Part shown: piece by piece, positions 1 to 62,462 of the stretch
Position numbering within the stretch: position 1 is the first letter of the stretch
Layout: every line of letters starts with the position of its first letter
From: Candidatus Aldehydirespirator sp.
GTDB taxonomy: Bacteria; Actinomycetota; Acidimicrobiia; Acidimicrobiales; Aldehydirespiratoraceae
Assembly: GCA_965220645.1 (NCBI GenBank)
Contig: OZ244836.1
Coordinates: forward strand, 3,072,335-3,136,334
Direction: 5' to 3'
DNA: 64,000 bases
Position numbers and translations under genes: made by a program
Notes under the pieces: generated by a model
The model's database searches: none
What the model saw: the letters and a program-made list of their open reading frames with translations, nothing else
What the model was told of the DNA's origin: nothing

Positions 1-20
1 GGCACGGCGATCGCGAACAT
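1..20 (-). CDS. 5' end of the next ABC permease gene (presumed LivM-type); only 6 codons lie in the window
   Basis: The ATG at 20..18 overlaps a TGA (22..20), opens MFAIAV and runs off the window edge. The position after livH fits livM, but the fragment is too short to verify. Confidence 0.3.
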
Positions 21-68
21 CACACTCGCTCCGTCCGGACGGCGAGGGCGAACATCACACTCGTTCCG
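13..68. repeat. 35-bp tandem duplication of the livH stop / downstream start junction
   Basis: GCGAACATCACACTCG(C/T)TCCG occurs at 13-33 and again at 48-68. Each copy carries the TGATG/ATGA-type stop-start overlap on the minus strand. Confidence 0.85.
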
Positions 69-942
69 CGTGGGCCACGTTGACGAGGCCGCCGGGTCGG
101 AAGATGAACAGCAGCGCGATCAAACTGAACACCACCCCCTGGGTCAGGGCGGCGGCCGTTCCGGGGAGCCAGGTGCGCAGCATGACCTCGGCGAGCCCCA
201 GGGCGAGACCCCCGATCACCGCTCCCTTGAGGCTTCCGAGTCCGCCGATGAGAGCGGCCAGCACACCGCTGAGCATCGGGTTGATCCCCGAGGTGGGCGA
301 GGTGTGGCCGGCCCGCATCAGCCAGAAGATCCCGGCGATGCCGGCCAGCGCTCCCGACAGGGCGAAGGCGCCCCGGATCACGCGGTCGGAGTTGACGCCC
401 ATCAGGCGGGCGGCGTCGAAGTCGGCCGCGGCGGCCCTGATCGACAGCCCGAACATGGTGCGCTGGAGGATCGCGGCGGTGAGGGCCAGCGTCACGATCG
501 CCACGATGATCACGAGGGTATCGAACAGCTCCACCCGTATGGGCCCGATCAAGAAGGTGTCGGCGATCCAGCCCGGCTCCGCGAACGTCTGGACCCGGGC
601 GCCGACGTACATCAAGAAGATGGCCGCCACCAGGAAGTGGATGCCGAAGGAGGTGAGCAGCTGGGTGAACTCCGACGAGCCCCGTACCCGGCTGAACGCG
701 ATCCGCTCGATGAGCACGTTGGTGACCACGGACACCACCACGATCATGGGAGCCACCAGGTACCACGACCAGCCGTTGTTGAACGCGGCGTAGGCCGCGT
801 AGCCGCTCACTGTGATCAGCTCGCCGTGGGCGAAGTTCAGAAGGTGCATCACGCCGAAGACCACGGCCACGCCCAGCGCCAGCAGCGCGTAGATGCCGCC
901 CCGCCCGAGTCCGTCGATCAGGTTCTGGACCAGCTCGGTCAT
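55..942 (-). CDS. livH: branched-chain amino acid ABC transporter permease (LivH-type)
   Basis: This is the C-terminal 295 aa of ORF 55..1272(-). From MTELVQNLIDGLGRGGIYALLALGV onward it is a multi-TM LivH/BraD-like sequence (NFAHGEL). The ATG at 942 overlaps the upstream ATPase stop (ATGA, 939-942). The longer N-terminal extension is Arg/Gly-rich and looks spurious. Confidence 0.9.
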   Translation of the reverse strand: MTELVQNLIDGLGRGGIYALLALGVAVVFGVMHLLNFAHGELITVSGYAAYAAFNNGWSWYLVAPMIVVVSVVTNVLIERIAFSRVRGSSEFTQLLTSFGIHFLVAAIFLMYVGARVQTFAEPGWIADTFLIGPIRVELFDTLVIIVAIVTLALTAAILQRTMFGLSIRAAAADFDAARLMGVNSDRVIRGAFALSGALAGIAGIFWLMRAGHTSPTSGINPMLSGVLAALIGGLGSLKGAVIGGLALGLAEVMLRTWLPGTAAALTQGVVFSLIALLFIFRPGGLVNVAHAERV

Positions 943-6694: not shown

Positions 6695-6823
6695 ACCGTA
6701 GCCGCGCCGACTCAGTGTCTCCCGCTCTTGTGCGCTGCGCTTACGGGCCGCTCGGGCCACGGCCTCGCGGGCTGCACTCGGCGGATCTTCGTGAACCGCG
6801 ACGTGCCCGCTCGGCCTCTGGTC
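6695..6823. mobile_element. MITE-like dispersed repeat, copy A (5'-truncated)
   Basis: The core CCCGCTCTTGTGCGCTGCGCTTACGGGCCGCTCGGGCCACGGCCTCGC lies at 6721-6768 and the terminal CCGCTCGGCCTCTGG at 6806-6821. The stop of the DsrE-like gene (6822-6824) abuts this terminus. Confidence 0.7.
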
Positions 6824-7632: not shown

Positions 7633-8955
7633 CTACAGCCCGGCCAACAGGTTCTGGGCGGCCACTGAGATCGGCTCGTTGAGTGCGCCTATGGCGGGTG
7701 AGTACACGTTCTCCATCGTGGCCAGTTCCTCGATGGTGAGGCCAACCCGGACCGCCATGGCCAGGAAGTCCGCTCGCTCCTTGATCCCCTCGCCGCCGAT
7801 CATCTGGGACCCGATCAGCCGGAGCGATCCGGGCTCGGCCAGGAGCTTCACCGTGATGGGCTTGACGCCCGGGTAGTAGCGGGCCCGGGTGATGCCCTGG
7901 GCCTTGCCCACAACGTGCTCAATGCCCAGCGCAGTAGCCAGCGTCTCCCCGAACGACACCCCGCCGATCATCCACTCGCCGGCCAGCAGTCCCCACGGAA
8001 CGAAGACTGCCCGGTAGTGGCGAGTCCCGCCGACGGCGTTGGTGCCGGCCGTTTTGCCCTGCGAGTAGGCGTGGGAGCCGGTCAGTCCCTGGATCGGAAT
8101 GTTGGAGACCCCGTGCGGGATCTCGGTGCAGTCGCCCGCGGCGTAGATGTTGGGATCCGAGGTCTGCATCTTCGAGTCGACGACCAGGCCGCCGGTTGTG
8201 CCCAGCTTGAGGCCGGCCGCGGCGGAGAGCGGATTGTTGGGCACCTTGTGTGTGCCGATGATGACGATGTCGGCTTCGATGTCGCCCTGCTGCGTCTCGA
8301 CGCCGCTCACGGTCCCGTCGCCCTTGAACGCCGTTACCCGGTTGCCCCACTGCATGTCGACGCCGGCGTCCTCCCAGGCCTGGCGAACCGGCTCGACGAT
8401 GTCGGGATCGAGCACGTCGGCCATGGGCCACGGGGCCGGATCGACGACGGTGCACTTGATCCCTCGGTGGACCATTGCCGCGACCATCTCCATCGCCACG
8501 AGACCCGCATCGATGATCACCGCGGAGGTGCAGGAGTCGAGGCGCTTGTCCCACTCCATGGCCTCCCGGATGTACTTGACCTCGTAGATGCCGTCGAGAC
8601 CGGCTCCGGGAACGTCCACTTGCGCATAGTTCCACCCGGTTGCGATCACCAGCCGGTCGTAGGACGCCTCACCCTCGCCGGCGACGGCGAGGGTGCGCGA
8701 CTTCGGGTCGATGGCTGTCACGGTTGTCTCGTAGTGGACGTCGATGCCGGTGGCGACGTACTGCTCCTTGGTGGCCAGGAAGAGACGCTCGAATGAGTCG
8801 ATCTCCTTTCCGTGGACGTAGGGAATGCCGCAGGGGCTGTAGGCCACATCGGTGTCCGCGGTGTAGACCACGACATCGGCGTTGGGATCGACACCCTTGG
8901 CTGCGCCCGCAGCCCCGATGCCTGCGGCGCCGCCGCCTATCACCGCTATCCGCAT
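7633..8955 (-). CDS. FAD-dependent pyridine nucleotide-disulfide oxidoreductase (CoA-disulfide reductase / NADH oxidase family)
   Basis: The N-terminus has VIGGGAAG. A single redox Cys lies in YSPCGIPY, a second dinucleotide fold in AVIIDAGLVAMEM, and the C-terminus has AAGDC. Confidence 0.88.
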   Translation of the reverse strand: MRIAVIGGGAAGIGAAGAAKGVDPNADVVVYTADTDVAYSPCGIPYVHGKEIDSFERLFLATKEQYVATGIDVHYETTVTAIDPKSRTLAVAGEGEASYDRLVIATGWNYAQVDVPGAGLDGIYEVKYIREAMEWDKRLDSCTSAVIIDAGLVAMEMVAAMVHRGIKCTVVDPAPWPMADVLDPDIVEPVRQAWEDAGVDMQWGNRVTAFKGDGTVSGVETQQGDIEADIVIIGTHKVPNNPLSAAAGLKLGTTGGLVVDSKMQTSDPNIYAAGDCTEIPHGVSNIPIQGLTGSHAYSQGKTAGTNAVGGTRHYRAVFVPWGLLAGEWMIGGVSFGETLATALGIEHVVGKAQGITRARYYPGVKPITVKLLAEPGSLRLIGSQMIGGEGIKERADFLAMAVRVGLTIEELATMENVYSPAIGALNEPISVAAQNLLAGL

Positions 8956-11685: not shown

Positions 11686-14277
11686 GTGGAGACCGAGCCA
11701 GGCGGCGCGCCGACGAGCGCACCGGGCGGTTGGTCCCTGGATCCTACGCTTGTTCACCCTCCCTCCGCCGTCGGTGGGAGGAGCGCACCTGCCGGTTGGT
11801 ACCCGGACCCTGCGGACGTGTCAAGGCAGCGACTATGGGACGGCCATCAGTGGACCGACGAAGTAAGCACGGTGGTCAGCGCCTCTGCGGATGCGACGGA
11901 ACCACCCCCTTCTGAGCCGCCGCGTGGCGCTGACTCGGGGCCGCACAGTCCGCCGCTAGCGTCGCTCGGCAGACGACTAACGGCAAGAGTCATCGACTCC
12001 TTATGTCTGCTAGCAGCACTGTACCTGATCGCATCGCTAGCATCGAGATACGCAAGTTACGAACTATCTGACGTATTGAATGGCGAATTAAGCTCGCGGT
12101 TGATCCTGCTCGTGCCACTGTTCTTATGGGAATTCGTTCCACAGGCGTTCACCGGACGCACCTTAGGCAAGGCTCTGCTTGGTATTCGTATCACCAGAGG
12201 TGACGACTCTCCTAGCAACCGATTCCTGGCTGCCTTCGTTCGTTCTGTCGGAATGCTGCTCTTTCTTCTGCCACTCATATTTCTCATAAGCTGCATCACG
12301 GTATTCAGAAAGAAGCGCCGCACGATTCCGGATATGCTCGCCGGAACGTCAGTTGTGAGGGTCGCTACGGCACCGATCTGGCGACTAGTGATAGCCGTGC
12401 TCGTGATCATGATTCTGACCTCATCTGTGGGCTACAGCTATCTTGAGGTGTGGCGACCAGCGGCCAGAATAGGCAATGAGTGGGAGCCCTTGAAATCCTT
12501 TTACGATGCCGATCAAGTTCGAGCCGAAGTTGTCGCCAACATCGACATACTGGACTACGACTTTGTGGTACTCCGCAAGTCTGGAGACACATCCGTATGG
12601 GACATTGCCTACTTCACGGGTGATCCAGAAGACGAGGAAGCTCTCACGGATGAGCTTTGGGAAGACTTCCTCATGGTCGAGTGCTACCGGTATAGGGATG
12701 ACACCTCCGGTTCGCCGGGCGTCGCCTTCGATTGGCCCCAACTAACTCCTTCCGGCGGAACCGATGTGGAACTGTCTTGGCGTGCGAGCACGGGAGCGTC
12801 CGGACAAGCTGTGGGGCTGATGAACTATGAGTCAGAAGATGTGAGTGGTGCCTGGATCGCGACAGCCGGTCTGACGGAGGACGACATTCGGAACAATCTG
12901 CGCGAGAGTGGCCGCTCACCTGATGAACTCGACGGAATACCGGTTGTCTTGCATGACTTCTACGAGGCGTTGCTGGAGGCCGACAGGGTCACGCTCACGG
13001 CCGGGGCCACGAGCAACACCTGGGACCTGCCCGAGGACTCAAGCTCGCTCAGGAGTCTGGTCGAACGATGCGAGGAGGCAAGCGCCCAAGACTCGTCTCC
13101 CGTTGAAGCAACGCCCTCTACGGAAGCAAGCAGCAGCGAGGCGAGCACCGGAGGCTCCTTGCCTGGCGATGTGGATCGCAGTACGACTTCGGCATGCGAA
13201 TTCTCGGACCGGTCAGCCGCTGTAAGAGGCGCTGTCTTCCAAATGTTCGCCGGGGGCGGCATCGGCACGGCTTTCTATGTCGGCAACGACGAGTGGATAA
13301 CCGCGGCCCATGTCGTGGAGAACCAGCGCAGCGTCGTCCTGCGAAACGGCGCCACAGAGCTTTCAGCCACCGTCAAGGGCGGCGATCTGATGGCGGATCT
13401 TGCCCTGTTGGAAGCAAACGGCGACGGGATCGCAGCGCTTCGCTTCGGATCTCTGCGAGAAGTTGGTGCAGGCTTCACTGTTTTCGCGATCGGCTTTCCG
13501 CTGTACGAGGCAGCCGAGTCGTCAGTCACGAGCGGTGTGCTCTCCAGGGTTGAGCAGTACGAGGACTTGGGCGAGGTCATCGTGACGGACGCGTCGGTGA
13601 ATCCCGGCAACAGCGGAGGACCGCTCGTGGACGAGTGCGGCGATGTAGTAGGAATGATCATCGCCAAACATGTGGGAGCTGATGTTGAAGGCATCGGCTA
13701 CGCAGTCCCCGAGACGACGCTACAAGATCAGATCCCGTCTCTTCGCACAGCTGGACCCGATAGCATCGCAAGTGGTCGATCCGACGCCAGCGTCAATCGT
13801 GGAGGTTACACTGACGGCTCAACCGAAGAGGGTTGGATCTTCGGCGAAGATGCAAATGTCGATGGCGGATTTGAGTACTATTCTCTAGAGGCTGAATGGC
13901 ACTCTAGTTACATATCTGGGTACGGCCTTACACTGTTTCTGGTCTGTAGCACGACAGGATCATTGTCAAACGACTATATCTCTGTCTCGACGCCATTCCT
14001 GATCTTCAACGACTACAACTACGACAGTTCAACGGTCCGCTACAGGTTCGAGGACATGACAGCACCCTTCACTGAGCAGTCGTGGTGGAGTTCCGAAGAT
14101 GTCGAATCTTGGCTGTTCGCTCCAGAGGACACTTCATTCGCCGAGCACCTTGGTCGTGCCGGCTCGGGACGCCTGTACATGGAGTTCATTCCCGGCAGCA
14201 CCGTGGGAGATGTGGAGAGCGCCGAATTCATCGTCGATGGCGCGTCGGAGGTCTTGCGAGCGCTCGACTGCTGGTAG
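11686..14277 (+). CDS. multidomain membrane protein: DUF2510-like + RDD + unknown domain + trypsin-like serine protease + unknown C-terminal domain
   Basis: GWYPDPADVSRQRLWDGHQWTDE is the DUF2510 motif (aa 36-58). An RDD-type region with 3-4 TM helices spans aa 93-250. The S1 triad is ITAAHVV (H542), MADLALL (D571) and GNSGGPL (S643). G+C is clearly lower than in the flanks. Confidence 0.88.
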   Translation: METEPGGAPTSAPGGWSLDPTLVHPPSAVGGRSAPAGWYPDPADVSRQRLWDGHQWTDEVSTVVSASADATEPPPSEPPRGADSGPHSPPLASLGRRLTARVIDSLCLLAALYLIASLASRYASYELSDVLNGELSSRLILLVPLFLWEFVPQAFTGRTLGKALLGIRITRGDDSPSNRFLAAFVRSVGMLLFLLPLIFLISCITVFRKKRRTIPDMLAGTSVVRVATAPIWRLVIAVLVIMILTSSVGYSYLEVWRPAARIGNEWEPLKSFYDADQVRAEVVANIDILDYDFVVLRKSGDTSVWDIAYFTGDPEDEEALTDELWEDFLMVECYRYRDDTSGSPGVAFDWPQLTPSGGTDVELSWRASTGASGQAVGLMNYESEDVSGAWIATAGLTEDDIRNNLRESGRSPDELDGIPVVLHDFYEALLEADRVTLTAGATSNTWDLPEDSSSLRSLVERCEEASAQDSSPVEATPSTEASSSEASTGGSLPGDVDRSTTSACEFSDRSAAVRGAVFQMFAGGGIGTAFYVGNDEWITAAHVVENQRSVVLRNGATELSATVKGGDLMADLALLEANGDGIAALRFGSLREVGAGFTVFAIGFPLYEAAESSVTSGVLSRVEQYEDLGEVIVTDASVNPGNSGGPLVDECGDVVGMIIAKHVGADVEGIGYAVPETTLQDQIPSLRTAGPDSIASGRSDASVNRGGYTDGSTEEGWIFGEDANVDGGFEYYSLEAEWHSSYISGYGLTLFLVCSTTGSLSNDYISVSTPFLIFNDYNYDSSTVRYRFEDMTAPFTEQSWWSSEDVESWLFAPEDTSFAEHLGRAGSGRLYMEFIPGSTVGDVESAEFIVDGASEVLRALDCW

Positions 14278-31973: not shown

Positions 31974-32951
31974 TTGGCCGAGACCGCGATTCTCGCTCTC
32001 GGAGGCAACGCACTCACCCGCGAGGACCAGCGCGGCACCCTGGAGGAGCAGTACGCCAACGCCCTCGCCATGGCCCACTCGGTCCGCTCGCTGATCCGCA
32101 AGGGATGGAACGTGGTGATCGTGCACGGCAACGGTCCCCAGGTCGGCAATCTGGCCATCCAGCACGAGGGCTCGACCGACCTGGTGCCCGCACTGCCCCT
32201 GTTCACCCTGGGAGCCATGACGCAAGGGCAACTGGGGAGCCTCATCTGCCTGGCGCTCAACGAGGTGTGCAAGCGCGAGATCGCGGGAGCGGTGTCGATC
32301 ATCACGCACGTCGAGGTCGACCCAGACGACCCGGCCCTGTCACACCCCACCAAGCCCATCGGCCCATTCTTCGACCGAGCCGAGGCAGCCGCGCTGGAAT
32401 CGGCGAAGGGGTGGGCCATGGCCGAGGATTCTGGGCGGGGCTACCGGCGAGTGGTTCCGTCCCCGCGGCCGATGGCGCCCATCGAGGCCGCGGCCATCTC
32501 GGCGCTGGTCGACCTCGGCTACATCGTTGTGGCCGGCGGCGGAGGCGGCATCCCGGTGGCGCGCTCGGCCGACGGCGCCTACCGGGGCGTCGACGCCGTC
32601 ATCGACAAGGACTTCGCCGCGGAGCGGATTGCGGACTCCGTGGGCGCCCAGGCCCTGGTTATGGTGACCGGGGTGGACGCGGTGCGCCTCAACTTCGGTA
32701 CGCCTCAGGAGCGGATCATGACCGAGATGACCGCATCCGATGCCCGGCTCCATCTGGCCGACGGGCAGTTCCCTCCCGGGAGCATGGGACCGAAGGTAGA
32801 GGCCGCGATCGAGTTCGTGGAGTCGCCGGGACGGATTTCAGCCATAACCACGCCCGAACTGGTCTACGCGACCCTCGATGAGCCCGGCGGCGTGATCGCG
32901 GGTCCTCGGGGCACGAGGATCGTGCCCGACCCGGTGCCCGCATTGACATGA
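31974..32951 (+). CDS. arcC: carbamate kinase
   Basis: ILALGGNAL...VIVHGNGPQVGNL...GGGGIPV are carbamate kinase motifs. The TTG start follows GAGAGGAGTGAG. Confidence 0.9.
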   Translation: MAETAILALGGNALTREDQRGTLEEQYANALAMAHSVRSLIRKGWNVVIVHGNGPQVGNLAIQHEGSTDLVPALPLFTLGAMTQGQLGSLICLALNEVCKREIAGAVSIITHVEVDPDDPALSHPTKPIGPFFDRAEAAALESAKGWAMAEDSGRGYRRVVPSPRPMAPIEAAAISALVDLGYIVVAGGGGGIPVARSADGAYRGVDAVIDKDFAAERIADSVGAQALVMVTGVDAVRLNFGTPQERIMTEMTASDARLHLADGQFPPGSMGPKVEAAIEFVESPGRISAITTPELVYATLDEPGGVIAGPRGTRIVPDPVPALT

Positions 32952-33066
32952 TGAGGACCGAAGTTCGCGGGCACCGTGAAAGCCCGCCCGTGTCGACATG
33001 ATGAGGACCGAAGTTCGCGGGCACCGTGAAAGCCCGCCCGTGTCGACATGATGAGGACCGAAGTCG
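32945..33066 (+). repeat. 50-bp tandem repeat (2 full copies plus a partial one) spanning the arcC stop / fdrA start junction
   Basis: ACATGATGAGGACCGAAGT... recurs with ATGs at 32948, 32998 and 33048. The first two open the 17-codon ORF MMRTEVRGHRESPPVST, and each ends in a TGA that overlaps the next ATG. Confidence 0.9.
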
Positions 33067-34601
33067 TAGCGGACTGCTACGTCGACAGTGTGCGGCTGCT
33101 GGAGGCCACCCGGGCGATGCGCGAGGCGACCGGCGTGGACCGGGCCTGGGCGCTGATGGCCACTCCGGCCAATCTCGATGCCCTGGCCGCCGAGGGCCTG
33201 ACCGATCAGCTCAGCGGCGCGGCGGCGAACGACCTGGTCCTGGCAGTCAGAGGATCCGGCGATGAGCTGACCGCAGCCCTGGAGGCGGGACGGCGCATGC
33301 TGTTCGAAGCGACCGAGCCCGGCGGCGCAGCTCACTCAATGCCGGCGGGGACGCGCCCTGCCAGCCTCGACGACGCTCTGGCCGAGGCTCCCGATGCCAA
33401 CGTCGCCATCGTCTCGGTCCCCGGTCCGTATGCGGCCCTGGAGGCCCACAAGGCCCTGACCCGCGGCCTCGACGTTCTGCTGTTCAGCGACAACGTGCCC
33501 CTGGCCGACGAGATCGGTCTGAAGCAACGGGCGTGCTCTCTGGGCCGGCTGGTGATGGGCCCGGGCGCTGGCACTGCAGCACTAGGTGGCATTGGGCTCG
33601 GCTTCTCGAACCGGGTGGCACCAGGGCCGGTGGGGGTGGTCGCGGCCGCGGGCACGGGCGCCCAGGAGGCCATGACCCTGCTCGACCGCTGGGGATCGGG
33701 GGTCTCCCATGTGGTCGGAGTGGGAGGCCGCGACCTGTCCGAAGCGGTCGGAGGGCTGATGGCCGAGGCCGCCATGGATGCCCTAGACGGTGACGCCGGC
33801 ACCGAGTTGACGTTGCTGGTGTCCAAGCCGCCCGCTGCTGGCGTGGCCGAGCGCCTGCTGAGCAAGCCCAGGAACAAGCCGATCGTGGCCGCGCTGATCG
33901 GGCTGGGGACACCGGTGGCCGCACCGGATGGCGTGACGGTGTGCAACACGCTCGAGCAGGGCGTGGTGGAGGCGCAGGCCCGACTCGCTCAACCCGGCGG
34001 AGACCCGCTCGGTTCCATCGACGCGGAGATCGCCGCACTGACTACACACCTCGACCCGTCCAGAAAGCGGATGGTGGGGCTGTTCAGCGGGGGCACCCTG
34101 GCCTACGAGGCAATGACCATCACCAGCCGCCACATTGGCTCCGTGTTCTCGAACACGCCGCTGGAGGCGGCATGGGCGCTGCCTGCGCCCCCCGACGGCC
34201 ACCTGTGCCTCGACCTGGGTGAGGAGGAGTACACCCGGGGGCGCCCCCACCCCATGATCGATCCCGAGGCAAGGCTCGAACTGCTGCGTGACCAGGCTTC
34301 GGACCCGAGCGTGGCTGTCGTGTTGCTCGATGTGGTGATCGGCGACGGCTCCCATCCGGACCCCGCCGCCATGCTCGCTCCGACCGCGGCGGAGATTGTC
34401 AAGTCGGGCGCGGCCGTCGTGGCCTACGTGCTGGGCACCGACCGGGATCCCCAAGGCTTCGAGCGGCAGCGATCAATCATGCGCGAGTCGGGATGCGTCG
34501 TGGCCGAGACGAACGCCCGGGCCGCCCTGGCCGCGGCCGCGCTCGTGAACCGCGACCCCGCGCTCGTCCATCACGACTTGGCGACCTCGTTCACGGTGTG
34601 A
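33048..34601 (+). CDS. fdrA: FdrA family protein (succinyl-CoA-synthetase-alpha-like)
   Basis: The N-terminus CYVDSVRLLEATRAM, a CoA-ligase-like glycine-rich region (VVAAAGTGAQE) and the 517-aa length are typical of FdrA. Confidence 0.85.
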   Translation: MMRTEVVADCYVDSVRLLEATRAMREATGVDRAWALMATPANLDALAAEGLTDQLSGAAANDLVLAVRGSGDELTAALEAGRRMLFEATEPGGAAHSMPAGTRPASLDDALAEAPDANVAIVSVPGPYAALEAHKALTRGLDVLLFSDNVPLADEIGLKQRACSLGRLVMGPGAGTAALGGIGLGFSNRVAPGPVGVVAAAGTGAQEAMTLLDRWGSGVSHVVGVGGRDLSEAVGGLMAEAAMDALDGDAGTELTLLVSKPPAAGVAERLLSKPRNKPIVAALIGLGTPVAAPDGVTVCNTLEQGVVEAQARLAQPGGDPLGSIDAEIAALTTHLDPSRKRMVGLFSGGTLAYEAMTITSRHIGSVFSNTPLEAAWALPAPPDGHLCLDLGEEEYTRGRPHPMIDPEARLELLRDQASDPSVAVVLLDVVIGDGSHPDPAAMLAPTAAEIVKSGAAVVAYVLGTDRDPQGFERQRSIMRESGCVVAETNARAALAAAALVNRDPALVHHDLATSFTV

Positions 34602-40720: not shown

Positions 40721-40800
40721 GGGCTGCGCGGATAGGTGAGACTCCGTCGGGTCGCAGCGGTGTCATTCCCGCTCTTGTTCGCTGCGCTCACGGGCCGCTC
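40716..40800. mobile_element. MITE-like dispersed repeat, copy B (3' part diverged)
   Basis: The terminal repeat TTTAGGGGCTGCGCGGATAGG (40716-40736) contains the TAG stop of the PIG-L gene. The core CCCGCTCTTGTTCGCTGCGCTCACGGGCCGCTCGGGC follows it. Confidence 0.7.
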
Positions 40801-40877
40801 GGGCACGCGTCGGCCACGCGGGGCAGCAACTCCCGCAGCGTAGGGCGGCTGCGTCCAGGCGCTACCGTCGGCACGGC

Positions 40878-43325
40878 ATGAGCGACGCCATCGACCCCGC
40901 ACGCGGTGCGCCGCCGGCACCCAAGGGACTCACGGCCGCCGAGGTCGAGCAGCGCAGGCGCGAGGGCCGCACCAACGACGTGCCCGACGCCCCGGTCCGC
41001 ACCGTGGGCCAGATCGTGCGCAACAACGTGCTCACCCCGGTCAACGCCATCATCGGCTCGATGTTCGTGCTCATCATGGTGGCCGACTTCCCGGCCGACG
41101 CGCTGTTCGCCGGGGTGGTGGTGTCCAACAGCGTCATCGGCATCGCCCAGGAGCTGAAGGCCCGCCGCACGCTGCGCAAGCTGGCCGTGCTGTCGGCCCC
41201 CCGGGCCAGGGTGGTTCGCGACGCCCAGGCACTGGAGGTCGGCACCAGCGAGGTGGTGGCCGACGACATTCTGGAGCTGCGGCCCGGCGACCAGGTAGTG
41301 GTGGACGGTGAGGTGGTGGCGGCCCGCGGCCTCGAGATCGACGAATCGCTGCTCACCGGCGAGAGCGACCCGGTCGACAAGGCCCCCGGCGACGGCGTGA
41401 TGTCGGGGTCGTTCGTGAACGCCGGGGCCGGGTGGTACCGCGCCACTGCCATCGGCGCCGACTCCTACGCGGCCCGGCTGTCGGGGGAAGCCCGCCGGTT
41501 CAAGCTGGCCGGCAGCGAGCTCAGGGGCGGCGTCAACGTCGTCCTGCGCCGCTTGACGTGGATCATCCCGCTGGCCGCGGTGCTGCTGCTCGGGAGGCTG
41601 CTGGCCACCGAGGACCGCTGGCAGGAGGCGCTGCGGGGCACCGTCGCCGCCGCAGTGGCCATGGTGCCCGACGGGCTGGTGCTGCTGACCAGCCTGTCGT
41701 TCATCACCGGAGTGATCGCCCTGGCCCGGAGGCAGGCCCTGGCCCGCGAGCTCGCGTCGGTCGAGCTGCTGGCCAGAGTGGACACGCTGTGCCTCGACAA
41801 GACCGGGACGATCACAACCGGGGAGATCTCCTTCGAGCGGGTCGAGCCGCTGGGGTCGGTTACCGGCGCCGAGGCGACCGAGGCGCTGGCCTCGCTGGCG
41901 GCGGCCGACCCGGCTCCCAACGCCACCCTGGCCACCATCGTGGATGCGGTCGGTCGGCCGGCCGCCGGGTGGGAGCTCACCGGCATCGTGCCGTTCTCGT
42001 CGGCCCGCAAGTGGGCGGCGGCCAGTTTCGAGGGCCGGGGCACCTACCACCTGGGCGCGCCCGATGTGCTGCTGGGGACCGGCGACGCCAGCGACGCGGC
42101 CCGGTCCAAGGCTGCGGCCGCCTCCGCCGACGGCGAGCGGGTGCTGGTGGTGACCCGCTCCGGCACGGCGCAGCCGCCCGGCGACGCCCTTCCCGATGAC
42201 CGGGAGCCGCTGTGCCTGGTGCATCTCGGCGACACGCTGCGATCCGACGCACCCGAGATCTTCGCCTACTTCCGCGACCAGGGCGTCGACCTCAAGGTCA
42301 TATCCGGCGACCATCCCGCCACCGTGGCCGCGGTGGCCCACCGGGCCGGCATCACCCGCAACCCAGACGACCCCGGCGACCCCGGAGAACCCGGTGACGC
42401 CATGGCGTCGGGACGGCTGCACCCGCCCGCCCTCGACGCCCGCCGGCTTCCCACCGAGCCCGGCGCGCTGGCCGACATCCTGGAGTCCTCCACCGTGTTC
42501 GGGCGGGTCGACCCGCACCAGAAGCGGGCCATGGTCCACGCCCTCCAGTCCCGGGGTCGCACCGTGGCTATGACCGGCGACGGCGTCAACGACGTGCTCG
42601 CCCTCAAGGACGCAGACATGGGCATCGCCATGGGCACGGGATCGTCCGCGGCCCGCGCCGTGGCCCAGCTGGTGCTGCTGGACAACCGCTTCGCCACGTT
42701 GCCCCGGGTGCTGGCCGAGGGCCGCCGGGTGATCAACAACATCGAGCGGGTCGCCAACCTGTTCATCACCAAGGCGGCCTACGCGGTGCTGCTCACCGTG
42801 CTGATCGGCGTGGCCGGCTCGCCGTTCCCGTTCCTGCCCCGCCATCTGACCCTGATCGGCACATTCTCGGTGGGCGTGCCCGGCTTCTTCCTGGCCCTGG
42901 CCCCCAACCACCGCCTCGTCAAGCCCGGCTTCCTCAGCCGCGTTCTGCGCTTCTCGCTGCCTGCGGGCACGGTGGCCGCGGCGGTGACTTTCGCGCTCTA
43001 CGAGATCGTTCGCCGCCTCGACAATGTGAACCTCGATGAGGCCCGCACGGCGGCCACCATGACGCTGCTGGGCCTCGGCCTAGTGATCCTGCTGCTCATC
43101 AGCCGACCGCTGAGACCCTGGAAGGTGGGCCTCGCCGCCTCCATGGCCGCCTCCTACGGGGCGGCGATGGCCTTGCCGGCCCTGCGAGAGTTCTTCCAAC
43201 TCGACGCGCCGTCGCTGGGCGGGTGGCTGTGGGTGTTCGGCGCGGTCGTGGTCGGCGGCGTCGGGGCATGGCAGGCGGTCGATCTGAGGGAGAGGATCGC
43301 CGAGCGCCGCGGGGCCCTGACATGA
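40878..43325 (+). CDS. cation-translocating P-type ATPase
   Basis: TGESDPV, the phosphorylation site CLDKTGTITTGE, and MTGDGVNDVLALKDADMGIAMG are present. The protein has 815 aa and about 10 TM helices. Confidence 0.92.
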   Translation: MSDAIDPARGAPPAPKGLTAAEVEQRRREGRTNDVPDAPVRTVGQIVRNNVLTPVNAIIGSMFVLIMVADFPADALFAGVVVSNSVIGIAQELKARRTLRKLAVLSAPRARVVRDAQALEVGTSEVVADDILELRPGDQVVVDGEVVAARGLEIDESLLTGESDPVDKAPGDGVMSGSFVNAGAGWYRATAIGADSYAARLSGEARRFKLAGSELRGGVNVVLRRLTWIIPLAAVLLLGRLLATEDRWQEALRGTVAAAVAMVPDGLVLLTSLSFITGVIALARRQALARELASVELLARVDTLCLDKTGTITTGEISFERVEPLGSVTGAEATEALASLAAADPAPNATLATIVDAVGRPAAGWELTGIVPFSSARKWAAASFEGRGTYHLGAPDVLLGTGDASDAARSKAAAASADGERVLVVTRSGTAQPPGDALPDDREPLCLVHLGDTLRSDAPEIFAYFRDQGVDLKVISGDHPATVAAVAHRAGITRNPDDPGDPGEPGDAMASGRLHPPALDARRLPTEPGALADILESSTVFGRVDPHQKRAMVHALQSRGRTVAMTGDGVNDVLALKDADMGIAMGTGSSAARAVAQLVLLDNRFATLPRVLAEGRRVINNIERVANLFITKAAYAVLLTVLIGVAGSPFPFLPRHLTLIGTFSVGVPGFFLALAPNHRLVKPGFLSRVLRFSLPAGTVAAAVTFALYEIVRRLDNVNLDEARTAATMTLLGLGLVILLLISRPLRPWKVGLAASMAASYGAAMALPALREFFQLDAPSLGGWLWVFGAVVVGGVGAWQAVDLRERIAERRGALT

Positions 43326-43403
43326 GCCGCGATGTCGCCGAGCGCCGCGGGGCCCTGACATGAGCCGCGATGTCGCCGAGCGCCGCGTCGGGGCAGCGAC
43401 ATG
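43300..43403 (+). repeat. 38/41-bp tandem repeat spanning the P-type ATPase stop / SDR-like start junction
   Basis: ATGAGCCGCGATGT recurs with ATGs at 43322, 43360 and 43401. The first two open MSRDVAERRGALT and MSRDVAERRVGAAT, and each ends in a TGA that overlaps the next ATG. Confidence 0.9.
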
Positions 43404-44066
43404 AGCCGCGATGTTCTGGTCGTCGGCGGGGGCGACCCCGGGGCCGCGCTGGCTGCTGAGCTGTCGGGCGACGTGCTGGTGGTCGATCCGGAGCCCGGCG
43501 ACATCGACGACGGCTTCGTGGACCGCCTGGCCCGCACCGACGGCTCTGCGGTCGACGGCCTCGACCTAGTGGTGCACGCCCTGTACCCGGCCGCGAGCCG
43601 AACCCCGGCCCGCATCGAGGAGATGAGCACCGACGACTGGGCCGCGGCCTGCGACGATCCGCTGGAGGCGGCCATCCGCCTGGCCCGGGGCGCGCACCGT
43701 CATCTGGCCGCCCGGCACGGAACGATCGTGTTCTGCGTGCCGCTGATCGGCGCGGCCGGCGCGGCGAGCCTCGTGGCTCTGGCCGGGCTGGCCGAGGGGC
43801 TGCGGATCCTGGCCCGGTCACTGGCCCGGGGCTGGGGCGCCGACGGGATCCGGGCCCACGCGGTGACCCTGCACCCTTCGATGTTCCTTGCGCCCGAGCA
43901 CGCAGCCGCGGCCGCCGAGTCCACCGCCCTGCACGACCCCGCGCTGGGCCGCCTGCCGTCGACGGCCGAGATCGCCGCCGTGATCGACGCCCTGGCCGAC
44001 ACCAAGGCCGCTGGCCTCACCGGCGCGTCGCTGGTGATGGACGGCGGCACCTGGATGGCCGGATGA
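43401..44066 (+). CDS. SDR-like (atypical short-chain dehydrogenase) protein
   Basis: A Rossmann-like N-terminus (VLVVGGGDPG) and a C-terminal GASLVMDGG are present. The catalytic motifs are degenerate. Confidence 0.7.
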   Translation: MSRDVLVVGGGDPGAALAAELSGDVLVVDPEPGDIDDGFVDRLARTDGSAVDGLDLVVHALYPAASRTPARIEEMSTDDWAAACDDPLEAAIRLARGAHRHLAARHGTIVFCVPLIGAAGAASLVALAGLAEGLRILARSLARGWGADGIRAHAVTLHPSMFLAPEHAAAAAESTALHDPALGRLPSTAEIAAVIDALADTKAAGLTGASLVMDGGTWMAG

Positions 44067-44857: not shown

Positions 44858-45042
44858 ACGGCCCCGGACGCGTCTGGCACGGCCGGGTTCCCGCTCTTGT
44901 TCGCTGCGCTCACGGGCCGCTCGGGCCGTGACTCCCGCTCCTGTTCTCTACGCTCACGGGCCGCTCGGGCCCGGGGCCTCGCTCGGAATCTCGCGTACTT
45001 GCTCACGGACTTCTGCCTGTCCGCTCGGCCTCTGGGTGCTAG
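44852..45042. mobile_element. MITE-like dispersed repeat, copy C (two tandem cores)
   Basis: The cores start at about 44889 and 44932. The TIR-like CTGTAGACGGCCCCGGA contains the SDR stop (44855-44857). The terminal CCGCTCGGCCTCTGGGTGCTAG lies at 45021-45042. Confidence 0.7.
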
Positions 45043-45925: not shown

Positions 45926-46063
45926 GAGGCCGAGCGGATAGGGAGCGAACTCGGTCCATACGGGCGAGGCCGTGGCCCGAGCGGCCCGTGAGCGCAGCGA
46001 ACAAGAGCGGGAGTGACACCGCTGCGACGCGACGGGCTGTCGCCTATCCGCGCAGCCTCTAAG
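45922..46063. mobile_element. MITE-like dispersed repeat, copy D (most complete, 142 bp, with terminal inverted repeats)
   Basis: The left end is CTAAGAGGCCGAGCGGATAGG (45922-45942). The right end CCTATCCGCGCAGCCTCTAAG (46043-46063) is its inverted repeat at 18 of 21 positions. The TAA of the lipid kinase and the TAG of the minus-strand phosphatase both lie inside the TIRs. Confidence 0.8.
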
Positions 46064-46877
46064 CCACGGGAGCGAGGACTTCGAGCAGTTCGTCCGCGAA
46101 GTCGGGACGGCAGATGACCAGCCCGGGCGTGCGCGGGCGCGGGTTGTTGAACCGCAGCGGCGAGCCGTCGGCGCACGAGGCGTGCAGACCGGCGGCCAGG
46201 GCCACCGCGGCAGGGGCGCACGTGTCCCACTCGGAGAGCCCGCCGGCGTGCACATAGGCGTCCATCTCGCCGCGCACTACCGCCATTGCCTTGACTCCGG
46301 CAGAGCCCATGGCCACCACCTCGGCGTCCAGCCTCTCCGCCAGCATGCGGCCGTCGCTATAGCCCCGCGACCGAGCCACCACCACCCTGCGGCGCCCGAC
46401 GCGGCACATGGTGGGCTCCGACGGCGGATCGGTGGCGAAGGTAGTGCCCCAGGCGGGTACCGCCACCGCAGCGGCGGTCGCTACGCCTCGCTCGCATAGC
46501 GCCACATGCACCGACCATGCCCCGGTCACGCCGAAGTCGTAGGAGCCGTCGATCGGGTCGACGATCCAGACCCTCTCGGCGTCGAGCCTTCGCCGGTCGT
46601 CGCGGCCCTCCTCCGACAGCACCGGGTCGCCGGGGCGGTGGCGGCTCAGCTCCTGCGTCAGGAACTCGTGGGCCTGACGGTCGCCCGCCTCCTCCAATCC
46701 CCACCCCTGCGGTGCCGACGGGTCGCTCAGCAGGCCGAGCAGCCGCTGACCGCAGTCGTGGGCCAGCCGAGCCGCCAGGGCGTGATCGCAGTCGTGGGCC
46801 AGCCGAGCCGCCAGGGCGTGATCGCAGTCGTGGGCCAGCCGAGCCGCCAAGGCGTGATCGCCTCCGTCGTCCGTCAC
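46059..46877 (-). CDS. inositol monophosphatase / CysQ-like 3'(2'),5'-bisphosphate nucleotidase family protein
   Basis: LSEEG, WIVDPIDGSYDF and WDTCA motifs are present. The GTG at 46877 overlaps the upstream stop (GTGA). The N-terminus carries 3 copies of DHALAARLAHDC. Confidence 0.85.
   Translation of the reverse strand: MTDDGGDHALAARLAHDCDHALAARLAHDCDHALAARLAHDCGQRLLGLLSDPSAPQGWGLEEAGDRQAHEFLTQELSRHRPGDPVLSEEGRDDRRRLDAERVWIVDPIDGSYDFGVTGAWSVHVALCERGVATAAAVAVPAWGTTFATDPPSEPTMCRVGRRRVVVARSRGYSDGRMLAERLDAEVVAMGSAGVKAMAVVRGEMDAYVHAGGLSEWDTCAPAAVALAAGLHASCADGSPLRFNNPRPRTPGLVICRPDFADELLEVLAPVA
46751..46858 (-). repeat. in-frame 36-bp tandem repeat x3 inside the CysQ-like gene
   Basis: CGCAGTCGTGGGCCAGCCGAGCCGCCAGGGCGTGAT occurs at 46751, 46787 and 46823. 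It encodes DHALAARLAHDC three times. Confidence 0.9.
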
Positions 46878-49896: not shown

Positions 49897-50000
49897 CCCA
49901 GAGGCCGAGCGGACCGACGACAGCTCAGCTGACGATGCCGAGGGCGTTGAGCGAGGCCGTGGCCCGAGCGGCCCGTGAGCGAAGCGAACAAGAACGGGCA
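49897..50000. mobile_element. MITE-like dispersed repeat, copy E (inverted orientation; right boundary uncertain)
   Basis: CAGAGGCCGAGCGGA lies at 49899-49913. The core reverse complement GAGCGAGGCCGTGGCCCGAGCGGCCCGTGAGCGAAGCGAACAAGAACGGG lies at 49949-49998. Confidence 0.65.
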
Positions 50001-52320: not shown

Positions 52321-52427
52321 GTGTCTTTCGCGCTCTTGTTCGCTTCGCTCACGGGCCGCTCGGGCCACGGCCTCGCTCAACGCCTTTCGAAGTCCCCCCA
52401 GACTATTGCCATCCGCTCGGCCTCTAG
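52321..52427. mobile_element. MITE-like dispersed repeat, copy F (5'-truncated)
   Basis: The core GCGCTCTTGTTCGCTTCGCTCACGGGCCGCTCGGGCCACGGCCTCGCTC is present. The terminal CCGCTCGGCCTCTAGG contains the TAG stop (52424-52426) of the minus-strand LLM gene. Confidence 0.7.
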
Positions 52428-59513: not shown

Positions 59514-60562
59514 CGCTTCTCCACCAGGTAGCGGAACACCGATTCGAGGTCCTCGTCGAGGGGGGCGACCCTCGACAGGCGAGCCTCGAGCCGCTGGGCC
59601 AGTGGTGCGACTTCGCGGCCGAGGCGGTCGACGTCGCGGGTGTCGACCACGACGGAGTCCGCACCGACGCTGACTCCCACCGCGGTGCCCGACTCGACCA
59701 GAGCGGCCGCGAACTTCCGGGGGTGGTCGACGGCGATGCGGATCCGGTGGGGGCGGTCGTCCATCAGCTCGCGCAGCTCGCGGTAGTCGCCGGTGGCGGC
59801 CAGCCGTCCCTGGGCGATCACCAGGATCCTCGACCCCAGGCGGGCGACCTCCTCGAGCACGTGGCTCGACACCAGCACGCAGCGGCCCTCGTCTCCCAAT
59901 CCGTGGAACAGTTCGATCATGCGGCGCCGCTGCACGGGGTCGAGCCCGGCGAGGGGCTCGTCGAGGATCAGCACCTCGGGGTCGTGCACCAGCGCGGCGG
60001 CCAGCTTCACCCGCTGGCGCATGCCCTTGGAGAACCCCGACACCGGTCGGGAGTCGTCGGCGTCGAGGTCCACCACTCCCAGAGCCCGCCGGGCGGCCCG
60101 CTCGGGCTGTGGTACGGCCTCCGAGGCGGCCGCCACCGTCACGAACTGCAGGGCGCTGAGCCGGTCGAACAGGCCGTCCTGCTGGGGGACGAGGCCGATG
60201 CGGCCCCGCACCTCCCGGTCGCGGCGGGCGTCTGAGCCCAGCACCCGCACGGTGCCGTTGGTGGGCGGGGTCAACCCGCACATCACCCTGAACAGGGTGG
60301 ACTTGCCCGCGCCGTTGGGGCCGAGCAGGGCGGTGACCCCGGCCCGCACCGAGAAGGTCACGTCCGATACCGCCACCACGTCGCCGAACACCTTCGACAC
60401 GCCGTTGACCTCGACCATGGCCGAGCCATTGGGCGGTGGAGGAGGCGGCGGGGTCGGCGGCGGCGGCCCGGGCGCGGGAGGCTGGGGCGCGGGAGGCTGG
60501 GGCGCGGGAGGCTGGGGCGCGGGAGGCTGGGGCGCGGGAGGCGCGGGAGGCTGTGTGCTCAT
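59510..60562 (-). CDS. ABC transporter ATP-binding protein with a Pro-rich N-terminal extension
   Basis: Walker A GPNGAGKST, signature FSKGMRQRV and Walker B VLILDEPLAGLD are present. The ATG at 60562 overlaps the upstream stop. Residues 4-45 are (PPAPQ)n followed by a poly-Pro run. Confidence 0.88.
   Translation of the reverse strand: MSTQPPAPPAPQPPAPQPPAPQPPAPQPPAPGPPPPTPPPPPPPNGSAMVEVNGVSKVFGDVVAVSDVTFSVRAGVTALLGPNGAGKSTLFRVMCGLTPPTNGTVRVLGSDARRDREVRGRIGLVPQQDGLFDRLSALQFVTVAAASEAVPQPERAARRALGVVDLDADDSRPVSGFSKGMRQRVKLAAALVHDPEVLILDEPLAGLDPVQRRRMIELFHGLGDEGRCVLVSSHVLEEVARLGSRILVIAQGRLAATGDYRELRELMDDRPHRIRIAVDHPRKFAAALVESGTAVGVSVGADSVVVDTRDVDRLGREVAPLAQRLEARLSRVAPLDEDLESVFRYLVEKR
60428..60553 (-). 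repeat. coding 15-bp tandem repeat (GGCGCGGGAGGCTGG x5) plus a poly-Pro tract
   Basis: It encodes PPAPQ x4-5 and then PGPPPPTPPPPPPP. Confidence 0.9.
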
Positions 60563-61542
60563 CGGCTCAGCGCCAGTCGTCGGTAGCGCCACCACACCAC
60601 GGCCGAGCCCAACGCCACCCACGCCAGGTTGGCGGCGGCCACGAACATCGTGGACAGCTGCTCGCGTCCGGCTCCCGGATTGAAGTCGTCGTCTGGTCCG
60701 CGACCCTCATCTCCGATGGGATCGATCCCCTCGACGGAGTAGATCCTGTTCTTGAGCTCGTCGGAGATCCCGCCGAGGTCGAAGGCGTAGATGTTGGCGC
60801 TCATGTCGGCCGCCTCGACCAGCGCCAGCGTCACGAACCCGCTGCCCCACAGCAGCAGGATCACGCCGACCGAGGCGAAGGCCCGGCGGTCGGTGAGGCT
60901 GGCCGCGGCCAGGCTGGCCGCGGTGAACGCGGCCGAGATGGCCGCGCCGGCCACCATGATCTGCACGAAGATCTTGAGCCACTCGATGATCCCGTCGGGC
61001 CCGGAGCCCTCGATGGTGTAGGCCACCAGCAGGAACAGCACCGGGCCGATGGTGAGCACGGCCAGGGTGAGGGCCACCGCCAGCGCCTTGGAGCCGAGGT
61101 AGCTCCACCGCTGAAGCGGGGTCGACAGGTACAGCTCGAGCATCCCGCTGCGGCGATCCGAGACCAGGATGTCGGGCACGACGATGCCGCAGTAGAAGAA
61201 CAGCGCGACGGTGATGAATCCGTAGTACTCGTGGTAGTCGGGCAGAACCTCCTCGGTGATGAGATCGACGTCGAGCACCACCGCGAGACCGACGAACACC
61301 ACCGCCGGCACCAGCGCGATCACCACCGCCAGCCAGGGCAGGATCTTGTGGCGGGCCGGGCGTCCGAGTCCCAGGGTGTGGCGCACCGAGTAGCGGATCA
61401 TCGAGCGGACCGCGCCCGGCAGGCCGGTGCGGGGACCGTCGTAGGACCGGTAGCCCTGGTCGATGATCTGGGCCGCCTCGCCGGCGGCCGAGGACGCAGT
61501 CGGGGCGGGGGTGTCGCTCATCGGCGCTGGTGGTTCGCTCAT
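60559..61542 (-). CDS. ABC-2 type transporter permease
   Basis: 327 aa and multi-TM. The ATG at 61542 overlaps the upstream ATPase stop (ATGA). Confidence 0.78.
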   Translation of the reverse strand: MSEPPAPMSDTPAPTASSAAGEAAQIIDQGYRSYDGPRTGLPGAVRSMIRYSVRHTLGLGRPARHKILPWLAVVIALVPAVVFVGLAVVLDVDLITEEVLPDYHEYYGFITVALFFYCGIVVPDILVSDRRSGMLELYLSTPLQRWSYLGSKALAVALTLAVLTIGPVLFLLVAYTIEGSGPDGIIEWLKIFVQIMVAGAAISAAFTAASLAAASLTDRRAFASVGVILLLWGSGFVTLALVEAADMSANIYAFDLGGISDELKNRIYSVEGIDPIGDEGRGPDDDFNPGAGREQLSTMFVAAANLAWVALGSAVVWWRYRRLALSR

Positions 61543-62462
61543 CGGGGGGCGTCCTCGAAGAGGTCCTCGAGCGTGCGGCGCCGGGTGTCGAGGCGGCGGA
61601 TCCGGGCACCGGCCGCGGCCACCGCGTCGCGTGACCGGTCGCAGAGCTCCTCGAACGCCGCGCCCCGCAGCATGAGCGTGGCCTCGTGGCGCCGCACCTC
61701 CAGGCCGGCGGCGCGCAGCGCGGCCTCCACCGTGTCGACCGACCCCGCCGGCTCGGCCACCTCCACCAGTTCGAGGGCGATCCCGTCGCCCGCGCCGACC
61801 AGTTCGCTGATCGGCCCGCAGGCCACGAGGCGGCCGGCGTCGAGGGCCACCACGTTGTCGCAGACCCGTTCGACCTCCTCGAGCTGGTGCGACGACAGCA
61901 CCACGTTGATCGAGAAGTCCCGGCTGATCTGGCCGATGAGGGTGAGCATCTCGCTGCGCTGCACCGGGTCGAGGCCGTCGGTGGGCTCATCGAGCAGCAC
62001 GAGCCTGGGGTCCGAGGCGATGGCCTGGGCCAGCTTCACCCGCTGGCGCTGGCCGGTGGACATGGTGCCCAGCGTCCGTTGGCGCTCCTCCCCCAGCCCG
62101 ACCAGCCACAGGGTGTCGGAGGCACGGTTGCGGGCCTCGCTGCGGGGCAGTCCCCGCAGCTCGGACAGGTGCCGGACGAAGTCGACGGCCCGCATCTCGT
62201 CGGGCAGCACGTTGCGCTCGGGCGCGAAGCCGACCTGACCCCTCAGGCGGTATCCGGCCGTCTGCGGGTCGAGGCCCAGCACGTTGACCGATCCCGACGT
62301 CGGGACCCGCAGCCCGAGCATGGCGTTGAGCAGGGTCGTCTTGCCCGCGCCGTTGGCGCCCACCAGCCCGGTCACGCCGGGCTGCATCTCGAGGTCGAGG
62401 CTGTCGAGGGCGACGGTGGGGCCGAAGCGCTGCGTCAGCCCCTGCGTCTCGACTATGGCCAC
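61539..62462 (-). CDS. ABC transporter ATP-binding protein
   Basis: Walker A GANGAGKTT, signature MSTGQRQRV and Walker B LVLLDEPTDGLD are present. The start is set at GTG 62462, just before VAIVETQGLTQRFG. The longer ORF-track N-terminus is Pro/Gly/Arg-rich junk. Confidence 0.82.
   Translation of the reverse strand: MAIVETQGLTQRFGPTVALDSLDLEMQPGVTGLVGANGAGKTTLLNAMLGLRVPTSGSVNVLGLDPQTAGYRLRGQVGFAPERNVLPDEMRAVDFVRHLSELRGLPRSEARNRASDTLWLVGLGEERQRTLGTMSTGQRQRVKLAQAIASDPRLVLLDEPTDGLDPVQRSEMLTLIGQISRDFSINVVLSSHQLEEVERVCDNVVALDAGRLVACGPISELVGAGDGIALELVEVAEPAGSVDTVEAALRAAGLEVRRHEATLMLRGAAFEELCDRSRDAVAAAGARIRRLDTRRRTLEDLFEDAPR

Follow-up and report, generated by a model that had tools for sequence, protein, structure and literature searches.

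The stretch analysed here (the window: 64,000 nucleotides of contig OZ244836.1, assembly GCA_965220645.1, G+C content 69%) contains junctions at which the stop codon of one gene overlaps the start codon of its co-directional neighbour, and at three of them the overlap has been multiplied into a tandem array whose units are themselves mini-open reading frames (mini-ORFs) of 12-17 codons. We name these junctions after their flanking genes: arcC–fdrA (50-nt unit), P-type ATPase–SDR (38- and 41-nt units; SDR, short-chain dehydrogenase) and livH–livM (35-nt unit). The host is an uncultured, sponge-associated bacterium of the Acidimicrobiia, in the neighbourhood of Candidatus Aldehydirespirator. The FdrA encoded in the window is 75-82% identical to homologues in metagenome-assembled genomes (MAGs) of uncultured Acidimicrobiales and Ca. 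Aldehydirespirator, many of them derived from sponge metagenomes, and the genus is mentioned in a study on sponge-associated Actinobacteriota (PMC11706023). The arcC–fdrA junction comprises:

31974..32951, plus strand: arcC, carbamate kinase-like, 325 aa, the upstream gene (from the ORF list; start codon uncertain)
32948..33001, plus strand: relay mini-ORF 1 (unit 1, 50 nt), 17 codons, MMRTEVRGHRESPPVST (ORF tables)
32998..33051, plus strand: relay mini-ORF 2 (unit 2, the same as unit 1), whose TGA at 33049-33051 overlaps the fdrA ATG
33048..34601, plus strand: fdrA/allF-like gene, 517 aa, MMRTEVVADCYVDS..., the downstream gene (PF27530 HMA_AllF_N, PF00549 Ligase_CoA)

The arcC stop (TGA, 32949-32951) overlaps an ATG at 32948, and the stop of mini-ORF 1 (TGA, 32999-33001) overlaps a second ATG at 32998. 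Of the three ATGs, at 32948, 32998 and 33048, the first two open MMRTEVRGHRESPPVST and the third opens fdrA. An initial annotation had described this chain of overlaps, with its 17-codon mini-ORFs and an fdrA starting at the third ATG, and the sequence, the ORF tables and Tandem Repeats Finder (TRF) all confirm it; TRF reports a 50-nt unit repeated 2.4 times at 32945-33064 with 100% identity and a score of 240. The kinase domain PF00696 (AA_kinase) is found on the orthologous 325-aa arcC product in conspecific contigs. Reading the sequence upstream of fdrA and of the unit ATGs (GCCCGCCCGTGTCGAC), we found no Shine-Dalgarno-like purine run, which would fit a dependence of fdrA on reinitiation.

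The second junction lies about 10 kb further along the same strand:

40878..43325, plus strand: P-type ATPase, 815 aa, ending ...RERIAERRGALT before its stop, the upstream gene (PF00122, PF00702)
43322..43363, plus strand: relay mini-ORF A, 38-nt unit, MSRDVAERRGALT (sequence, ORF tables)
43360..43404, plus strand: relay mini-ORF B, 41-nt variant of the unit, MSRDVAERRVGAAT (sequence, ORF tables)
43401..44066, plus strand: short-chain dehydrogenase SDR, 221 aa, MSRDVLVVGGG..., the downstream gene (PF13561)

The ATPase stop at 43323-43325 again overlaps an ATG, and ATGA motifs at 43322, 43360 and 43401 give periods of 38 and 41; the array announced at 43300-43403 with these periods is thus real and occupies 43322-43404. 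Unit B differs from unit A by a change that adds 3 nt and keeps the frame. The composition of the 38-nt unit is transparent: it reproduces, without a mismatch, the 24 nt at the end of the ATPase gene and the 14 nt with which the SDR gene begins, and so is a duplication of local sequence.

The third array sits on the minus strand and runs off the window:

55..942, minus strand: LivH-type branched-chain amino-acid ABC permease, ending ...AHAERV before its stop at 57..55, the upstream gene (PF02653)
20..58, minus strand: livH relay mini-ORF, 35-nt unit, (V)MFALAVRTERV, whose TGA at 22..20 overlaps the next start
1..23, minus strand: start of a further 35-nt unit, MFAIAVP..., cut at the window edge and matching the last unit of the array in contigs L085 and L086

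The permease is 295 aa long in conspecific gene calls. The link GTGTGATG, which ends at position 53 on the minus strand, offers two starts in one frame, a GTG at 58..56 (GTGA, 58..55) at a spacing of -4 and an ATG at 55..53 at a spacing of -1. The period of 35 given earlier for positions 13-68 stands, and the description of the locus as having the same structure as arcC–fdrA is to be completed with the minus-strand orientation, the GTGTGATG link and the truncation at the window edge. What does not stand is the implied start of the downstream gene at MFAIAV. This is a further mini-ORF, and in the two conspecific contigs (L085/L086) a three-unit array is followed by a 642-aa LivM-LivG fusion that starts MAERTPLVG.

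How would such arrays be tolerated between two genes, and what decides which of them persist? We consider it probable that the arrays are locally derived variable-number tandem repeats (VNTRs) seated on NTGA or TGATG overlaps of co-directional genes and kept if their unit length is frame-compatible with a putative translational coupling. NTGA (-4) and TGATG (-1) are the spacings at which terminating ribosomes restart most readily and the two most enriched ones in prokaryotes; coupling often drops fast with spacing, and a short ORF can serve solely to bring the ribosome to the next gene (PMC12548453). A tandem duplication across an overlapping junction would spare both genes, as the upstream one would still end at the first TGA and the downstream one would begin at the last ATG, and the array could then grow and shrink through slippage or unequal recombination. 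Only unit lengths of 2 mod 3 or 0 mod 3 would be expected to persist. A unit of 2 mod 3 would be a mini-ORF from the previous stop to the next start, and a terminating ribosome may then be passed along, one unit at a time, until it reaches the downstream gene. Copies of 0 mod 3 would lengthen the downstream protein in frame at its N-terminus. In an array of 1 mod 3, a ribosome that restarted at the first ATG would cross the true start out of frame, and such arrays would be purged. Translation of the mini-ORFs is inferred, as is a possible dependence of fdrA and the SDR gene on termination-reinitiation, and the bias in unit lengths described next would come from selection on coupling.

All five periods listed in the initial annotation (35, 50, 50, 38 and 41) are indeed 2 mod 3. 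Is this a rule? The frame survey and the comparison between species covered the window and 80 related loci (1.44 Mb; loci are cited by number, as L001). In a first test, each of 1340 stops of long coding-like ORFs was examined for a second copy of the stop-centred 16-mer, with at most 2 mismatches, 12-150 nt downstream. This retrieved 17 loci, against about 0-1 when the downstream sequence was shuffled, and the first step had a period of class 2 mod 3 in 10 of them and of class 0 mod 3 in the other 7, which leaves class 1 mod 3 empty. After the orthologous ATPase–SDR cases were collapsed and the locus at the window edge was added, the classes held about 8 (class 2), about 7 (class 0) and 0 (class 1), for which (2/3)^15 = 0.002. 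The earlier claim that no coupled junction is 1 mod 3 therefore extends to the roughly 15 independent loci surveyed. A second test took the TRF arrays with periods of class 1 or 2 and split them by the presence of a long-ORF stop: arrays containing a stop were distributed 9:1 between class 2 and class 1, whereas the others were distributed 14:19 (Fisher p 0.011). The lone class-1 array with a stop (L047, 28 nt) was rejected as a coupled junction, since it lies on an uncoupled CTGA gene end with no overlapping or adjacent start; without it p is 0.002. As the arrays away from junctions are split 14:19, there is no mutational bias against class 1, and the bias is specific to coupled junctions. 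Arrays of the strong kind have a negligible probability of arising by chance, and junction duplications are about 9-fold denser in this clade, where they occupy 11 of 308 long-ORF stops, than in the remaining Actinomycetota of the sample (4 of 966), with about 0.2 expected in shuffles. Together the two tests support selection as the probable filter of period classes. It had been suggested that a junction-prone duplication mechanism is filtered by selection; the class bias argues for the filter, but junction-proneness is superfluous, as a general high rate of tandem duplication suffices when repeats inside genes and between genes vary too.

The 0 mod 3 class behaves as had been anticipated, namely as an in-frame addition to the downstream protein: the class-0 cases of the relatives are N-terminal repeats. 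Perfect 0 mod 3 junction arrays occur in L005 (minus strand, at 8016, 17580 and 5096) and L009 (minus strand, at 7117), with units of 33 nt in six copies, 30 nt in two and 45 nt in two to three; each copy holds the upstream stop and an in-frame ATG, giving the downstream protein a repeated N-terminus or alternative starts. The 33-nt array of L005 encodes (MEAPRREPAPD)n, an in-frame N-terminal repeat of the downstream protein. The window has a candidate of this class:

61518..61542, minus strand: ABC ATPase stop and ABC-2 permease start, with two in-frame ATGAs 21 nt apart (61542..61539 and 61521..61518)

This is the fourth junction of the initial annotation (61514-61545, period 21), and it is present as described: the 11-mer TCGCTCATCGG recurs at a distance of 21 and yields M1 and M8 of the permease (MSEPPAP/MSDTPAP). 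Its status as a duplication is doubtful, given that exact 11-mer repeats within 12-60 nt are common (the window has 17 such loci, shuffles about 4.5) and that the locus is invariant in the two other strains recovered.

Do the arrays vary between strains? Exact-protein look-ups recovered seven distinct conspecific contigs from three ENA assemblies, with 91-99.98% nucleotide identity to the window across aligned segments. Matches came from queries with the SDR, with the ABC ATPase and the permease, and with a 67-aa protein; FdrA, SDR2, a 241-aa minus-strand protein and a glycosyltransferase (tried with V and with M as first residue) had no exact match. Strains differ by a few residues. An exact-pattern scan of JGI metagenome contigs for a 25-mer of the arcC–fdrA junction gave 0 matches. 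Among the strains, the alleles of arcC–fdrA have no unit, two identical units, two variant units (MIRTEV...VST and MMRTEV...ALT) or three units, with an ATGACG variant common to units 2 and 3. Those of ATPase–SDR are 38+41 (the window and ctg836639, one single-nucleotide polymorphism (SNP) apart), 2x41, 2x38+41, 3x38+41 and 38+6x41, that is 2, 3, 4 or 7 units, plus one allele fused to the ATPase. There are thus six ATPase–SDR alleles among 7 genomes, three of them within one sample. At livH–livM, two conspecific contigs have three units. In all repeat-bearing conspecific alleles the chain of -4 links is unbroken from the upstream stop to the downstream start. Some strain-specific SNPs recur from unit to unit, and some are found both in a unit and at the start of the real gene (MNRDV in L087 is an example); they indicate ongoing concerted evolution through slippage or unequal exchange. 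The fused allele (L082/L089; ENA ERZ25067264, ctg834848) has a 5-nt deletion (CCCTG) at the first junction, orthologous to window positions 43300-43330. As a consequence unit 1 is 33 nt long (0 mod 3) and is read in frame with the ATPase, whose C-terminus gains 11 residues (826 aa, up from 815); the extension still ends on ATGA. This allele shows how a junction repeat can be absorbed into a protein.

The arrangement is not confined to this species. We searched the relatives for ladders, defined as the stop of a long coding-like ORF, an overlapping start, one or more mini-ORFs and the overlapping start of another long coding-like ORF; in the window the search retrieves both arcC–fdrA and ATPase–SDR. 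Species about 80% identical at the amino-acid level have kept ladders at these two junctions. At ATPase–SDR, L001, L003, L004, L008, L009 and L018 have single ATGA...ATGA mini-ORFs (MSRD...) of 16, 18 or 27 codons, and the spacers measure 47, 53 or 80 nt, all 2 mod 3, with differences (+6, +33) that are multiples of 3. In L009 (21024-21072) a 17-nt motif, ATCCAGCACGCACTCAA, is repeated 2.9 times inside this relay spacer, for a net gain of 33 nt with the frame of the mini-ORF kept. At arcC–fdrA, L001, L003, L007 and L010 carry one homologous, diverged copy of the spacer, and because of these copies the spacer of the 50-nt unit must be old. L001 has a complete two-rung ladder, ATGA-29-ATGA-20-ATGA, in which the total of 49 nt is 1 mod 3 while each step is 2 mod 3; L003, L007 and L010 have near-chains only, with the stop 1-10 nt before the start. 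Further ladders in the relatives are found at SDR–SDR2 in L006 (47 nt), at CofC–PIG-L in L011 (2x59 nt), in L012 (14 nt) and in L056 (11 nt). The only mini-ORF residues conserved between species are those taken over from the downstream gene, which speaks against a role as functional micropeptides.

Four points weigh against the proposal of locally derived, coupling-compatible arrays. The first concerns origin: neither the 30-nt interior of the 50-nt unit nor the interior of the 35-nt unit has significant similarity to its flanking genes, so a purely local origin is only partly shown there. The number of independent events behind the frame rule is modest (about 15), and their independence rests on orthology calls made by eye. 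GGAG lies 8 nt upstream of each ATG in the livH units, which makes independent initiation possible at that locus. Finally, strain L091 has no arcC–fdrA unit but an ordinary 13-nt spacer without overlap, and the ladder is therefore dispensable. In this strain the junction (13685-13698, compared with window positions 32940-33060) and the FdrA N-terminus, MTAQARVIKDCYVD, are divergent and resemble those of other species (of the L009 type), which suggests a recombinational replacement of the segment between lineages.

Are the arrays, then, simply tolerated, or are they adaptive? They might be contingency loci, with selection acting on copy number so as to set or diversify the ratio of downstream to upstream protein; each stop-restart step would let through only part of the ribosomes, so that expression would drop geometrically with the number of units. 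The very high allelic diversity in co-occurring strains at ATPase–SDR would be expected under such selection, the ladder is kept at the same two junctions across species, and coupling efficiency is known to vary with spacing and context (PMC12548453, section 6). We nevertheless think this unlikely. Repeats inside genes and between genes vary too, so the variability needs no special selection; the three gene pairs share no obvious need for a variable stoichiometry; and one strain lacks the arcC–fdrA array entirely. In the same spirit, and with as little confidence, one can speculate that co-existing strains of the sponge symbiont might continuously reset the stoichiometry of coupled pairs by gaining and losing relay mini-ORFs, and that local duplication of NTGA junctions could be how MIRUs, the interspersed repetitive units of mycobacteria, originated before one unit dispersed.

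The likeness to MIRUs deserves attention. MIRUs, in the account of Supply et al. (1997) as relayed in section 11 of PMC12548453 and in PMC3184786, are tandem units of 40-100 bp in operons, each containing an ORF that is coupled to those on either side at -4 nt; they vary between strains and have been proposed to insert at start codons. The arrays described here are likewise tandem units between co-directional genes and in the orientation of those genes (the 35- and 38-nt units being slightly under the MIRU range), the start and stop of the unit ORF overlap the stop and start of the neighbours at -4 nt, and copy number is polymorphic between strains (0/2/3 at arcC–fdrA and 2/3/4/7 at ATPase–SDR in seven contigs). 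Both occur in high-GC Actinomycetota, and both have unit lengths of class 2 or 0: unit sizes at the twelve classic MIRU-VNTR loci are 53 and 77 bp (2 mod 3) or 51 and 54 bp (0 mod 3), none being 1 mod 3 (PMC3558156, Table 2). The differences are equally clear. MIRUs form one dispersed family (about 40-50 loci) thought to have spread by insertion, whereas here the unit differs from locus to locus, without sequence similarity, and at least one unit is an exact copy of local gene ends. Units are shorter, 35-50 nt here and down to 11-14 nt in relatives, and the host belongs to the Acidimicrobiia and not to Mycobacterium.

Where do the units come from? In pairwise local alignments the units of the three loci score no higher than shuffles, and the unit cores, searched across the window, are present only at their own locus. 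On these two results a dispersed family was rejected; the units are probably locus-specific, locally derived junction minisatellites and not a dispersed element. For the 50-nt unit, 20 nt (GACATGATGAGGACCGAAGT) correspond to the junction and the start region of fdrA, and the similarity of the remaining 30 nt to arcC is not significant; a reading of this core by eye as a diverged copy of the arcC 3' end (RGHRESPPVST against RGTRIVPDPVPALT) was discarded, as 28% of shuffles score equally. The livH unit shares with livH only about 13 nt beside the junction, and the similarity of its interior to livH is not above that of shuffles. Could a mobile, MIRU-like element have inserted at NTGA start codons and then been amplified in tandem? 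The architecture is that of MIRUs (PMC12548453; PMC3184786), no flanking source is detectable for the interiors of the 50-nt and 35-nt units or for the 47-nt spacer of the relatives, and the genome does hold an interspersed element of about 55 nt. Still, we regard insertion as very improbable. Beyond the alignment and search results just given, the 38-nt unit derives wholly from its flanks, the interspersed element is unrelated and lies off the junctions, and many small junction duplications in the relatives (11, 14, 30, 33 and 45 nt) are plainly local copies. Filled and empty sites with tetranucleotide direct repeats would be signs of insertion. L091 and several species lack the arcC–fdrA unit, but their different, non-overlapping 13-nt spacer and divergent FdrA N-terminus do not constitute a clean empty site; ATGA at both ends of a unit is equally expected from local duplication and from insertion.

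An assembly or sequencing artefact (collapsed or expanded repeats, chimeric reads) can be dismissed with near certainty: perfect tandem copies are prone to assembly error and some contigs have low coverage (4x, 6x), but arrays of 100-290 nt fit well inside single reads, diverged versions occupy the same junctions in independent MAGs of other species, and seven independently assembled conspecific contigs from three assemblies contain the arrays, with copy numbers that differ, lengths that vary by discrete multiples of the unit and SNPs peculiar to individual units, which is why the arrays cannot be put down to assembly.

Set against known translational coupling, the local arrays look familiar link by link. 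As in termination-reinitiation pairs (PMC12548453), every ladder link is at -4 (NTGA), and arcC–fdrA and livH–livM also have an in-frame ATG at -1 (TGATG). Known coupling, however, involves a single junction or a single leader ORF, whereas here 2-7 identical relay ORFs form a chain that differs in length from strain to strain. The arrays also resemble the minisatellites or VNTRs found inside genes, presumably the products of the same process (slippage or unequal exchange). Inside a gene an array must be 0 mod 3, whereas at a junction 2 mod 3 is allowed too, since stop and start overlap there with a +1 frame offset. We found no paper in the literature that combines VNTRs or tandem repeats with translational coupling. 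The MIRU-type architecture is not confined to mycobacteria and needs no mobile element; it arises repeatedly, in a distant and uncultured actinobacterial class, by plain tandem duplication of overlapping junctions, under the simple frame rule that unit length is 2 or 0 mod 3 and never 1. The rule itself would be population-genetic evidence that ribosomes restart at NTGA overlaps in these organisms. The junction arrays can be used as strain markers for sponge-symbiont populations, and the alleles with 0-7 relay ORFs form a natural series for gauging the efficiency of reinitiation.

A structured RNA element was considered as an alternative function and rejected, as no Rfam family reaches its gathering threshold anywhere in the window and the units have no fold in common; taken singly, the units are no more stable than shuffles (z -0.69 and +0.50). 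Only the complete arcC array reaches z -3.1, through pairing between units of a repeated GTCGAC palindrome.

The genome shows a general instability of repeats. In-frame arrays of 15, 36 and 51 nt lie inside genes of the same genome (TRF) and differ between strains; the 15-nt one is a PQPPA array. A 44-nt repeat between genes is strain-variable as well. The PQPPA array is a perfect in-frame repeat, (PQPPA)n, of 15 nt in 4.9 copies followed by a proline run (60470-60553, minus strand), at the N-terminus of an ABC ATPase; it lies about 20 nt downstream of another ATGA junction (the gene starts at the ATGA at 60562, minus strand) and is 72 nt shorter in two other strains. The 36-nt array, (DHALAARLAHDC)n, has 3.2 copies at 97% identity (46747-46861, minus strand), lies inside or beside an inositol-monophosphatase-like gene and has two units fewer in one strain.

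The interspersed element of about 55 nt is REP/MITE-like (repetitive extragenic palindrome or miniature inverted-repeat transposable element). Its core, TCCCGCTCTTGTTCGCTGCGCTCACGGGCCGCTCGGGCCACGGCCTCGC, has 7 copies in the 64 kb, with 0 expected, all in or near intergenic spacers:

6729-6758
40776-40805
44898-44927
44942-44971
45974-46003, minus strand
49961-49990, minus strand
52337-52366

Its sequence is unrelated to the junction units, and it sits in ordinary intergenic spacers and not at junctions. The 44-nt repeat at 44881-44971, whose period is also 2 mod 3, was for this reason rejected as a junction ladder: it consists of two adjacent copies of this intergenic element, and the site is 45 nt longer in four strains.

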